64,000 nt of DNA from Candidatus Latescibacterota bacterium (GTDB taxonomy: Bacteria > Latescibacterota > UBA2968 > GCA-2709665), in contig CAXXXF010000007.1 in assembly GCA_963667175.2 (NCBI GenBank), positions 140,796 to 204,795 on the forward strand, written 5' to 3'. Positions within the stretch are counted from its first letter, which is position 1. Every line of letters starts with the position of its first letter. Positions 53,925 through 56,647 of this stretch are shown one piece after another. The position numbers and the translations under genes are program-made. The notes under the pieces were generated by a model. It did not search any database and was not told the origin of the DNA. It was given only the letters and a program-made list of their open reading frames with translations.

Positions 53925-55488
53925 CCTGATGACGCTCCTTCTGCTGGCGACGGTGGAACCGGTCGGCGCGCAGGTGACCGCATCCAGTCTGACCGAAATC
54001 CAGCGGGGACGCGTACCGGGCTCTGACTCGCAGGCGGTTTCGACACTATATGAGCAGTTCGACGTCGATTATACCCGGCACGGGCTTCAGGCCGGACTTC
54101 GTGCTGAGATCTTCAATTCATGGCGCAACACCGCTCCGGGATCGCCGCTTTCGCAGGTCGAATACCAGGTTGTGCACGTGTCCCAGAAACACCTGCGCTG
54201 GACGCGGGGGCCCGTGGAGCTGGTTGCGGGCAACTACTACGCCATCCTGGGTCGTGGCGTCACACTCAGGGCCTTCGATCTTCCGGGCGTCATTCTGGAG
54301 AACGGGCAATTCCGTCGCCGCTATTCGCCGTCCCGGGACCTGGAGGGCGGCGTGGCAACCTGGGCGGGGCCTCGGGCCGAGGCCAAAGCCCTGATCGGGC
54401 GACCTGTATTTAGTGACGTTCCGCCCGCGGTTCGAGTGGGAGATCCGCTCCGGAACCTGCCGCGGCGCGACAATTGGCTTGCCGGAGGCGAGGTCTCAGT
54501 ACGGCCTGCCAGCCAGGTCAAGGTTGGCGTTACGGCAGTCAGTCATCACGCCTCCAGACTGGATTCCACCCGAACCTGGTCGGGTTTCCTGGAGCTGGAC
54601 GTCACACCGGCTTTTGAGGCATCCGGACTCTCTGACCTGTACGCGACCGTCTACGCCGAATACGCCGGACTGAATGACGCGCACGTGGACGGCAGCGCTC
54701 TGTATCTTTCGGCCAACGCCGGGATATCCAATCTGGGTGTCAGCCTGGAATACAAGGATTACGAGAATTTCGCCTTCAGTTTCAACGATCCCCCTTCCCT
54801 GGTCCGCGAACACTCGGCCGTCCTGCTCAACCGGGCGACACATGCCCTGATTGCCGATACGGAACAGGGCTATCAGGCGGAGGCCACGTACTCGATTTTC
54901 GGACTGGCCACGTTGACGGCAAACATCAGTAAGGCAGAGAACGAGCTGGCGCCCGGATTCGCGACGACTTTCAATGAACGGTACGTCGGCCTGGACGTCG
55001 AACACCAGCCTGAAGTCCACGGCCGCGCGATATCAACCAGCCTCTTCGTGGATTGGGGCAAGGACGAATTGAAGGGGATCGGGAAGCACAGGACGGCGGG
55101 CGCCGGGATCGAATCCACGACGCCCGGCGGGTCTGTCGCCGGTTTCGATCTGCAGGTTCGGCGCGCGGCCAGACTACCCGGAAATGAACCCGGGTTCTGG
55201 GACGTTTATACCCAGTTCTCGTTCCAGCACCCCTCCGGCGTGGGCGCCGCACTCGTATGGGACCGCACCAGCGACCCTTTCGAAGTCGACGACAACGCCA
55301 CGACGGACCGGATTGAAACGGGTACGCGGACCTGGCTGGCAGTCAGTCTCAACGCCGCCTTCCTCGATAGATACGAAGCCCTCGTCTTCGCCGGTCGCAG
55401 GCGGGGCGGCGCCGCGTGCACTTCGGGGACATGCTACCAGGTATTGCCGTTCAACGGACTTGAAATGCGGTTCAGAACCTATTTTTGA
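53905..55488 (+). CDS. Probable outer-membrane beta-barrel protein (DUF6029-like) with C-terminal CxxxxC
   Basis: GAGGAG RBS; signal peptide; GNYYAILGRG, EYKDY, NDPPSL, GGAACTSGTCY; ends in amphipathic strand MRFRTYF. Family assignment is from recall. Confidence 0.75.
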   Translation: MRAPINSLMTLLLLATVEPVGAQVTASSLTEIQRGRVPGSDSQAVSTLYEQFDVDYTRHGLQAGLRAEIFNSWRNTAPGSPLSQVEYQVVHVSQKHLRWTRGPVELVAGNYYAILGRGVTLRAFDLPGVILENGQFRRRYSPSRDLEGGVATWAGPRAEAKALIGRPVFSDVPPAVRVGDPLRNLPRRDNWLAGGEVSVRPASQVKVGVTAVSHHASRLDSTRTWSGFLELDVTPAFEASGLSDLYATVYAEYAGLNDAHVDGSALYLSANAGISNLGVSLEYKDYENFAFSFNDPPSLVREHSAVLLNRATHALIADTEQGYQAEATYSIFGLATLTANISKAENELAPGFATTFNERYVGLDVEHQPEVHGRAISTSLFVDWGKDELKGIGKHRTAGAGIESTTPGGSVAGFDLQVRRAARLPGNEPGFWDVYTQFSFQHPSGVGAALVWDRTSDPFEVDDNATTDRIETGTRTWLAVSLNAAFLDRYEALVFAGRRRGGAACTSGTCYQVLPFNGLEMRFRTYF

Positions 55489-55521
55489 AGCAAATCTCCA
55501 CTCTCTCAAAGGAGGCCTTCG

Positions 55522-56505
55522 ATGAGTCGAATCGCGACGTGCTTTGTGTCTATGCTCCTCTTCGGACTCAACCCGCCGGAACCCGCGGATGCCCAGAGCG
55601 TCGGCGACGCGGTGCCCGCGTTCTCGCTGACAGGGCTGGATGGGAAAACCTACGCCGCCGCGAACTACAAGGGCCGTGTTCTGGTTCTCTATTACCTGGG
55701 CCACAACTGACCCACCTGCCGGGCGGCGGGTCCGTCCATAGAACAGCAGATCTGGAAGGCGTTTCAGGATGACGGCGTTGCGGTCCTTGGACTCGACGTC
55801 TACAACGGCAGCCAGTCCCAACTTCAAGGGTTTCGCGCAGCGACGTCGATCACGTTCCCCCTTCTGCTGCAGGCCGGCGGCATCAAGAAGACCCACGGGA
55901 CGCACACGTTGCTGGTCGCGGACCGCCACGGGATCGTCCGCCACGTCGGTGGACGATCCGCTTCCGGTCTTAGCACCGCGGCGGCGAGTATCCGGGAATT
56001 GCTGGCCGTCAAGCCGCCGGCAATCAGCCTCGCCAATACATCTCTCGACTTCGGCGATGACGTTCCCGCCGGAGAAGCCAGGACCCTTACGCTCGTCGTA
56101 AAGAATACCGGAGGGGAGTCCCTCAGGATTTCGAACATGGCGTCCGACCTCGAGGGCGTCACGTTCAGCCGGACGAGACTCATGGTCGCGCCCGGCGACA
56201 GCGGTGTCGTCGATGTCACCTTCACACCCTCGGAGGGCGGTCCATTCTCCGGCGCCGTTACCATTTCCAGCGACGACCCTGAAAACAGCAGCGTTACGGT
56301 CGCTATTTCAGGAACGGCTATCGATGTCTCCGTCAATCCCAGGGCCGACTTCGACGATGACGGCGAAGTCGGGTTCAGCGACTTCCTCGAGTTCGCTCGG
56401 GCCTTCAATACCGACAATGCCGCCTTCGACCTGGACGGGAGCGGCCTGGTCGACTTCCAGGACTTTCTGGAATTCGCGAAGAACTTCGGAAAACGCGTGC
56501 CCTGA
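55522..56505 (+). CDS. Exported selenocysteine redoxin (UxxC) fused to Ig-like and dockerin/EF-hand-like domains, 327 aa
   Basis: ORFs 55522-55710 and 55909-56505 share a frame. Reading through TGA at 55708-55710 gives VLVLYYLGHN-U-PTCRAAGPSIEQQIWKAFQDDGVAVLGLDV...ITFPLL with no other stop. Confidence 0.88.
55714..55731 (+). promoter_or_regulatory. Candidate SECIS hairpin
   Basis: ACCUGCC-GGGC-GGCGGGU: 7-bp stem (one G-U) with a G-rich loop just 3' of the UGA. Confidence 0.55.
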
Positions 56506-56523
56506 GCCAAAGACGTTCATTTC

Positions 56524-56561
56524 CAGGAAGAGACACGCTGGTTTCAGCGTGTCTCTTCCTG
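56524..56561. terminator. Perfect 17-bp inverted repeat after the selenoprotein gene
   Basis: CAGGAAGAGACACGCTG-gttt-CAGCGTGTCTCTTCCTG. Confidence 0.65.
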
Positions 56562-56647
56562 TCCTGTCTTGCCGAGATATCGCGAAGCTTCTATTTTGTA
56601 CGGCCCGATTGCAGCGCGCAACCGTCGCACGTTCGCGCAATTCGACC

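Follow-up and report, generated by a model that had tools for sequence, protein, structure and literature searches.

Does a TGA that splits a bacterial reading frame end a gene, or does it encode the catalytic residue of an enzyme? The question is raised by a locus in a 64,000-nucleotide (nt) stretch of contig CAXXXF010000007.1 from Candidatus Latescibacterota bacterium (assembly GCA_963667175.2), hereafter the window, whose positions are used throughout unless another contig is named. Under translation table 11 the locus yields two open reading frames (ORFs) in one frame, of 62 amino acids (aa; 55522..55710) and 198 aa (55909..56505, with a TTG start), which the original prediction, made by a model from the letters alone, took for the pieces of a hidden secreted selenoprotein. 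TGA 55708-55710 is indeed the sole stop that separates them, and reading it as selenocysteine (Sec, U) gives a product of 327 aa that ends at a second TGA (56503-56505). We consider it very probable that this is one intact gene in which UGA is read as Sec, encoding an exported thiol-redox enzyme with an immunoglobulin (Ig)-like spacer and a dockerin, likely held at the cell surface. The features of the gene are as follows.

55510..55515, + strand: Shine-Dalgarno box AGGAGG, 6 nt upstream of ATG 55522, read from the sequence
55522..56505, + strand: selenoprotein gene, 327 codons plus terminal TGA stop
55522..55593, + strand: predicted Sec-type signal peptide, residues 1-24, A-D-A|Q, from sequence features only
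55600..55947, + strand: thioredoxin-fold redoxin domain with U63-P-T-C66, residues 27-142 (Pfam AhpC-TSA and Redoxin)
55708..55710, + strand: Sec codon UGA (codon 63) in ...YYLGHN-U-PT-C..., a Sec/Cys column in homologues
55721..55737, + strand: hairpin resembling a Sec insertion sequence (SECIS), apical loop GGUC 55729-55732 at +22..+25 from the U of UGA
56017..56316, + strand: Ig-like domain (DUF1573 / choice-of-anchor D / HYDIN-VesB-like), residues 166-265 (Pfam, NCBIfam)
56344..56487, + strand: dockerin-like module with two Ca-loop-plus-helix repeats, residues 275-322

The TGA lies in a conserved Sec/Cys column

A six-frame search of 61 related genomes recovered an orthologue in 14/14 other genomes of the genus, each with exactly one TGA and with 70-84% identity over residues 1-327 or, in two forms that have a second Ig domain, over residues 1-267; the more distant relatives in the family and order likewise mostly contain one TGA. 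In a scan of the phylum, the redoxin domain was matched (E <= 1e-15) in 84 of 168 Latescibacterota genomes. Among the 129 matches listed in that scan, a manual count found one TGA in 123, none in five and only a TAA in one.

The original prediction held that the TGA stands where the nucleophilic Cys of a CxxC motif belongs, and proposed to examine the same column in homologues. In three sets of sequences, which share genomes in part, the column holds either TGA or a Cys codon: U in 25 and Cys in two of 27 translated homologous frames; TGA in 18 and TGT in two of 20 further loci; and TGA in 39 and TGC/TGT in 24 of 63 matches at 46 named loci from a separate scan, with no other codon. Position 63 (U/C), C66, F112 and P113 are invariant among 26 homologues, and F112-P113 likely forms the cis-Pro loop. 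Two Sec-redoxin genes follow one another in four congeners, and in one member of the same family Sec, Cys and Sec redoxin forms are adjacent to each other.

Sec machinery and a SECIS-like hairpin accompany the codon

All four of the genes selA, selB, selC and selD, for which the original prediction suggested a search, are present in the genome: a selA match of 474.8 bits on contig 6 is adjoined by a selB wing domain, with tRNA-Sec beside both, and a selD match of 360 bits lies on contig 13 (163286-164209, - strand). The selD match has one in-frame TGA of its own, which probably makes the selenophosphate synthetase another selenoprotein. SelA was matched in 131 of the 168 Latescibacterota genomes, including 82 of the 84 redoxin-positive ones; the two exceptions are fragmented (80% complete in 820 contigs and 91% complete in 430 contigs). 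Six families (f5, f6, f7, f10, f12 and f14) had no redoxin match in the phylum scan, and five of them had no SelA match either, while f10 had one in 2/13 genomes. Outside the window, on contig 4 (86808-87299, - strand), we observed a second AhpC-TSA match with one in-frame TGA (...FFRGTW-U-RRS...), whose U-x-x-S motif resembles catalogued peroxiredoxin-like UxxS selenoproteins. A naive genome-wide scan for in-frame TGAs with open flanks rich in G+C at third codon positions was non-discriminating, giving 1165 candidates, of which 475 had loose "redox" motifs.

A hairpin directly after the TGA, as originally described, does exist. This minimum-energy hairpin (55714-55731) was rejected as the SECIS: it is no better than shuffled sequences (z = 0.48) and is broken in five orthologues. 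It is probably a competitor of the conserved GGUC-loop hairpin, which lies in another register (55721-55737). Counting from the U of UGA as +1, G22 is invariant among 43 aligned Sec forms, and G18, C20, G21, G23, C25 and C26 are at least 90% conserved. Stem pairs 18-21:26-29 are formed in 90.4% of cells compared with 40-54% when the partner is slid, and the exchanges in this stem are GC<->CG and GU/AU/GC. Of 41 distinct Sec forms, 33 have GGT at +22..+24, and none of 24 Cys forms does. Third-codon-position entropy, which is descriptive only as the sequences are related, is 0.88 bits in columns 16-30 against 1.38 elsewhere in Sec forms, and 1.64 against 1.34 in Cys forms; synonymous constraint of this kind, confined to Sec forms, is expected of an RNA-level constraint that goes with the UGA. 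Distant members, namely two loci (L029 and L043) and a Calditrichia form (L103), keep the loop and the spacing on different stems.

The hairpin resembles that of Escherichia coli K-12 fdhF, which has a GGUC apical loop at the same +22..+25 from the UGA and a stem that likewise starts 11-15 nt past the codon; it differs in having a stem of only 4-6 bp, no long lower helix and a competing hairpin that is more stable in isolation. G23 and U24, which we take to be the SelB contacts in fdhF, stand in the loop in this register, and the window's alternative 6-bp register (columns 14-19:25-30, -9.3 kcal/mol) likewise leaves G22, G23 and U24 in the loop. The original prediction had also called for a comparison with bacterial SECIS (bSECIS) elements. 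The published bSECIS consensus consists of a loop of 3-9 nt, a stem of at least 4 bp, a G in the first two loop positions and a spacing of 16-37 nt (PMC13188914), and the hairpin conforms to it, with a GGUC loop, a stem of 4 bp (or 6 bp) and a UGA-to-loop spacing of 18 nt (or 16 nt). We infer that SelB carrying Sec-tRNA(Sec) recognises this hairpin, 11-27 nt past the UGA, and inserts Sec at codon 63; a ribosome arriving at the UGA would melt the 5' arm of the competing hairpin and thereby free the SECIS.

Three other readings of the TGA were weighed against Sec insertion. It is highly improbable that UGA is read here as an ordinary amino acid (Trp, Cys or Gly), whether by near-cognate decoding or through an altered code. 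Among stop codons UGA is the most prone to leak, and a Cys here would, on general grounds, make a working CxxC; but TGA terminates this gene and 22 of 25 complete homologue frames, and is therefore a normal stop in these genomes. The complete Sec machinery, the company of SelA in nearly all redoxin-positive genomes and a SelB-type loop hairpin kept only in the TGA forms also speak against ordinary read-through.

That the TGA is a genuine stop, leaving either a nonsense pseudogene or two products (a 62-residue peptide and a 198-residue Ig/dockerin protein from TTG 55909), is barely tenable. Table 11 does give exactly these two ORFs, stand-alone Ig-plus-dockerin genes without a redoxin adjoin some homologues, and orthologues are present in public databases as fragments of 195-241 aa named after the Ig domain ("choice-of-anchor D" or "DUF1573"). 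The same truncated entries bear out the original expectation that ordinary annotation would miss the gene. However, both flanks of the TGA are under purifying selection in a single frame: among 13 congeneric orthologues, codons 26-62 show a ratio of nonsynonymous to synonymous substitution rates (dN/dS) of 0.13 and codons 64-129 one of 0.21, and the ratio ranges over 0.13-0.22 in the mature part on either side of the TGA. Codons 64-129 are the stretch from the TGA to TTG 55909, which is non-coding for gene callers, and these 66 codons encode the remainder of the thioredoxin fold. Moreover, the TGA is kept across the phylum at the catalytic Cys column, and a pseudogene would not remain open in one frame in every congener. 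The last reading, a sequencing or assembly error that conceals TGC, TGT or TGG, can practically be dismissed: the window does come from a metagenome-type assembly (18 contigs), but contigs of three runs from two studies, which are independent assemblies, span 55708-55710 without a listed difference (20 other variant places are listed), and the TGA is present in every congener assembly. Runs labelled as sponge metagenomes contain contigs 95-100% alike to window positions 55400-56600.

A predicted export signal precedes the redoxin, Ig-like and dockerin-like domains

The N-terminus has one basic residue, a hydrophobic core (10-residue hydropathy 2.44) and A-x-A before Q25, in agreement with the signal peptide originally proposed (ADA-Q), and the A at -1 of the predicted cleavage site is kept among orthologues. 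A lipoprotein reading of Cys7 was rejected: this Cys lies six residues from the start and is missing in one orthologue and in the second paralogue. The 327-residue product would be exported through the general secretory (Sec) translocon by means of residues 1-24.

AhpC-TSA (PF00578) matches residues 27-118 with 52.8 bits against a cut-off of 26, and the Pfam Redoxin model exceeds its cut-off over residues 27-142; the redoxin fold continues past the TGA, as had been claimed, with U63 at the first position of U-x-x-C. The best solved relatives of the domain by sequence are TlpA/ResA-like (2ls5, 3kcm, 3hdc, ResA and StoA), and U63 and C66 align on the CxxC of 2ls5, 3kcm and 3hdc. The motif P-x-x-x-T/S-x-x-C/U, typical around the peroxidatic residue of peroxiredoxins (Prx; PMC13188914), is absent, the residues at -3 and -7 from U63 being G60 and L56. 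Because of these relatives with an aligned CxxC and the missing peroxiredoxin motif, the domain is assigned by sequence to the thiol-disulfide oxidoreductase type rather than to the peroxidase type. On the redoxin part, all NCBIfam models stay below their cut-offs: the ResA-like model scores 41.3 bits against 170, and TlpA, DsbE and StoA score lower. With TlpA, ResA, CcmG (DsbE) and StoA the protein shares the thioredoxin fold, the active-site dipeptide spacing and a (here predicted) exported location; it differs from them in having Sec for the first Cys, Asn or Ser rather than Trp before it, extra C-terminal domains and scores far below the curated cut-offs of the TlpA, ResA and DsbE models. 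A known group of proteins with a TlpA-like fold and an active-site Sec has the motif U-G-C, in contrast to the U-x-x-C (U-P-T-C) found here. The product is most likely an extracytoplasmic thiol-disulfide (selenol-sulfide) oxidoreductase, in which Sec63 would be the attacking nucleophile and Cys66 the resolving residue.

The Ig-like domain of the original prediction was recovered by three models over their cut-offs: DUF1573 (Pfam; 44.6 bits against 26.1), HYDIN/VesB-like Ig (residues ~166-265) and NCBIfam choice_anch_D (47.4 bits against 45). Since its copy number varies, from one here to two in some relatives and 13 in one, it can be regarded as a spacer. The homologue with 13 copies (L072; G044 contig 1, 856649-867344) has an open frame of 1695 codons, in which the Ig-like repeats come in tandem after the Sec-redoxin head. 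Window positions 56056-56316 (residues 179-265) also show a weak match to the NCBIfam OS_HP2 family (seleno)protein model (28.6 bits against a cut-off of 100).

In the C-terminal tail, EF-hand_1 scores 29.7 bits against a cut-off of 25.4 when the tail is isolated and is weak in the whole protein. When ten such tails were compared with Pfam Dockerin_1, all gave E <= 0.023 and one of the ten exceeded the cut-off. A profile built from 11 tails has the cellulosomal dockerin 2y3n_B as its best solved match (E 7.5e-10, positions 7-58 of 61), whereas EF-hand proteins match the profile in one loop only. Judged from these profile comparisons, the tail is a true dockerin homologue, so that the dockerin/EF-hand tail originally proposed stands, although below the Dockerin_1 cut-off. 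It resembles type I dockerins (PF00404; 2y3n chain B) in its two tandem Ca-binding loop-plus-helix segments and its terminal position on many unrelated proteins; it differs in falling under the Pfam cut-off in nine of ten tails and in its host, a diderm of the Fibrobacteres-Chlorobi-Bacteroidetes (FCB) group.

Relationship to catalogued Prx-like selenoproteins

Selenoproteins of the UxxC "Prx-like" kind have been catalogued since 2004, and this is therefore not a new kind: "Prx-like thiol:disulfide oxidoreductase" selenoproteins (PF00578, UxxC) appear in Table 1 of PMC13188914, where they are attributed to Kryukov & Gladyshev 2004, and "Prx-like 1" UxxC proteins have 225 members in the Global Ocean Sampling survey (PMC2398784). 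The protein shares with them PF00578 over cut-off, U-x-x-C with an N-terminal Sec, many Cys homologues and a SECIS directly past the UGA. Since the defining features that can be tested, PF00578 over cut-off and U63-P-T-C66, were found, it is, judged by these features, a member or a branch of this kind. It adds to them a signal peptide, one or more DUF1573-type Ig domains, a dockerin and a genetic unit with a TlpA-like and a DUF6029 protein (see below). The passages on Prx-like selenoproteins in PMC13188914 and PMC2398784 mention no Ig or dockerin fusion, and our literature searches, which covered articles without their supplements, found no published description of the Ig-plus-dockerin architecture, of the Latescibacterota-wide spread or of the TlpA-like/DUF6029 coupling. 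These three aspects are what is new here.

A quick, unrooted maximum-likelihood tree was made from 44 Sec and 25 Cys redoxin domains (69 in total, one 41-residue row having been dropped). It requires at least five Sec/Cys changes, and well-supported branches enforce three of these. All 20 rows of the Bacteroidota clade have Cys, and four Cys forms are interspersed among the Latescibacterota Sec forms.

A location on or near the cell surface is favoured

The original prediction suggested that the enzyme may be surface-docked. We favour a place on or near the cell surface or in an extracellular complex because (i) relatives are aimed outward, (ii) cohesin-like proteins of the genome bear sorting domains of the type IX secretion system (T9SS), and (iii) other proteins carry a dockerin-like module of the same kind. 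As to the first, a Calditrichia Sec homologue has a T9SS type A sorting domain (40.1 bits against a cut-off of 23), a Krumholzibacteriia form shows a weaker sorting-domain match under the cut-off, and the Bacteroidota homologues, which have two domains, show lipoprotein boxes in 3/3 N-termini read. As to the second, the genome contains three cohesin-like matches, of which both examined carry a T9SS sorting domain, and 14 T9SS sorting domains in all; a model scan found none in the selenoprotein itself. The dockerin would then probably hold the enzyme on such cohesin-like proteins. As to the third, 49 ORFs of the genome contain the dockerin-like module, C-terminally in 21 and near the N-terminus in most others. 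Ten of these ORFs were scanned and comprise two heparinase II/III-like lyases, an HmuY-like protein, an FG-GAP/ASPIC protein, a CARDB protein, a WD40 giant and four without a Pfam family.

Several further observations were made on these modules. Two small proteins on contig 15 (L060, 1159-1920, - strand; L061, 1012-2178, + strand) consist of two parts, a cohesin-like domain and, after it, a T9SS type A sorting domain, and the gene upstream of L060 ends in a dockerin-like segment. Dockerin-like ORFs are clustered on contig 4 (~357-372 kb) and contig 3 (~272-297 kb). Unlike in cellulosomes, the candidate cohesin-like partners are T9SS cargo, and no cellulosomal scaffoldin was seen. Extracellular, cellulosome-affiliated enzymes have been mentioned for Latescibacteria, with attribution to Farag et al. 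2017 (PMC7081726). Dockerins in Latescibacteria were not reported by Youssef et al. 2015: PMC4454575 lacks the words dockerin, cohesin, cellulosom and selen.

A possible alternative, which we think somewhat unlikely, accepts the selenoprotein and places it in the periplasm, as a TlpA/ResA-type reductant fed by DsbD and tethered by its dockerin to a periplasmic or inner-leaflet partner; its substrates might then be found in cytochrome or copper-protein maturation or in the repair of oxidised proteins. In favour of this place, the solved structures nearest in sequence are those of periplasmic or extracytoplasmic reductants, a DsbD-type membrane protein is encoded in the genome, and a Sec-type signal peptide without a T9SS sorting domain fits such a place. 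On the other hand, the homologues of other phyla are aimed at the surface, homologues occur with up to 13 Ig-like spacer domains, the cohesin-like partners examined bear T9SS sorting domains, and other dockerin carriers, such as the heparinase-like lyases and the HmuY-like protein, usually act extracellularly.

The gene belongs to a conserved three-gene unit

The selenoprotein gene is the last of three co-oriented genes, the first two of which overlap, with a 33-nt gap ahead of the third. The remaining features of the unit are as follows.

53388..53924, + strand: first gene, TlpA/ResA-like thiol-disulfide oxidoreductase, 178 aa, with its own signal peptide and C-x-x-C (WATYCKPC)
53905..55488, + strand: second gene, DUF6029 outer-membrane beta-barrel-like protein, 527 aa, with a C-terminal Phe and the Cys pair C505/C510
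56524..56561, + strand: terminator-like hairpin of 17 bp, closing the unit

The first protein scores 107 bits against a cut-off of 170 with the NCBIfam ResA-like model, and its best solved relatives are ResA (E 3e-22) and 2m72 (E 1.4e-17). The second is matched by Pfam DUF6029 (51.8 bits), its atlas neighbours are DUF6029 clusters (score 0.97), and it is a single copy in the genome; an HHpred remark in PMC9603273 relates DUF6029 to Wzi-like outer-membrane barrels. In an alignment of barrels from Latescibacterota (8), Bacteroidota (4) and Calditrichales (1), C505 and C510 are the sole two conserved Cys columns and are invariant in 13/13 sequences at ~30% overall identity. The terminator-like hairpin is perfect over its 17 bp (-33.2 kcal/mol, z = -7.09). 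In strain variants from two runs, two of its pairs are changed on both sides in a compensatory way (56526/56559, G-C to C-G; 56530/56555, G-C to A-T).

Every genome sampled from one family (f1) has tlpA-like, DUF6029, Sec-redoxin and tilS in this order, and a redoxin (Cys), a tlpA-like gene and a DUF6029 gene are adjacent in that order at 11 Bacteroidota loci and one Calditrichales locus. In family f1 the unit is also adjoined by a divergent ORF (51864-52916, - strand; 75-91% identity), named by eye as a Gfo/Idh/MocA-like oxidoreductase.

A speculative extension, which we regard as unlikely, makes the selenoprotein the outermost member of a thiol/selenol relay across the outer membrane. Electrons would pass from the cytoplasm to the DsbD-type protein, a possible source of reducing power, then to the periplasmic TlpA-like CxxC, to the Cys pair of DUF6029 and on to the redoxin at the surface. 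Phyla of the FCB group would target it in different ways, Latescibacterota through a dockerin bound to T9SS-anchored cohesin-like proteins, Calditrichia through a T9SS sorting domain and Bacteroidota through a lipid anchor; in Latescibacterota the nucleophile would also have been upgraded from Cys to Sec. Such a relay appears to be undescribed in print; the article listed in a full-text literature search for DUF6029 concerns polysaccharide export.

Discussion

Several results count against an intact, surface-held selenoprotein with a functional SECIS and a conserved genetic unit, and have to be set beside the evidence above. The first group concerns the RNA. Within the first 45 nt of the window's own sequence, the competing hairpin is the minimum-energy fold (-14.8 kcal/mol), compared with -9.3 kcal/mol for the SECIS-type fold alone. 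Compensatory covariation is scarce, with a double change in only one stem pair, because the SECIS hairpin is short and mostly invariant. A scan of 55600-55900 against Rfam (E <= 10) returned two chance-level matches and no SECIS family; 8 of the 41 distinct Sec forms are without GGU at +22..+24; and one congener (L017/L081) has the loop GGAC for GGUC (U24 to A), a change also observed at a locus of another family (L048). Among the runs listed as containing 55400-56600 there is no RNA run. The second group concerns the outer location and the unit. Dockerin_1 (PF00404, cut-off 22.9) scores 16.4 bits on the whole protein and 20.8 bits on the isolated tail, the cohesin-like profile has no solved relative by sequence, and the selenoprotein, which would have to cross the outer membrane, has only a predicted Sec signal peptide. 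In a second family (f2), the DUF6029 gene is not adjacent to the redoxin gene.

The reading of one intact gene with Sec at codon 63 has consequences beyond this locus. The whole family, which is present in half of the sampled Latescibacterota genomes and often in 2-3 copies, is fragmented in databases; with a family model that reads U, its entries would be mended. Because the loop and spacing of the SECIS equal those of fdhF, E. coli may insert Sec heterologously with no need for re-engineering. Among the papers listed in our literature searches, judged by title and abstract, none concerns Latescibacterota selenoproteins or a dockerin-bearing selenoprotein, and the gene adds an exported, probably surface-held selenoenzyme to this phylum. 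It also marks a conserved unit in which a TlpA-like protein and a DUF6029 barrel bearing a Cys pair are joined by a redoxin that probably acts at the surface; this unit is genetically testable in cultivable Bacteroidota carrying the Cys version. The relay, if true, would give DUF6029 a function and would show how a bacterium keeps a surface enzyme reduced.

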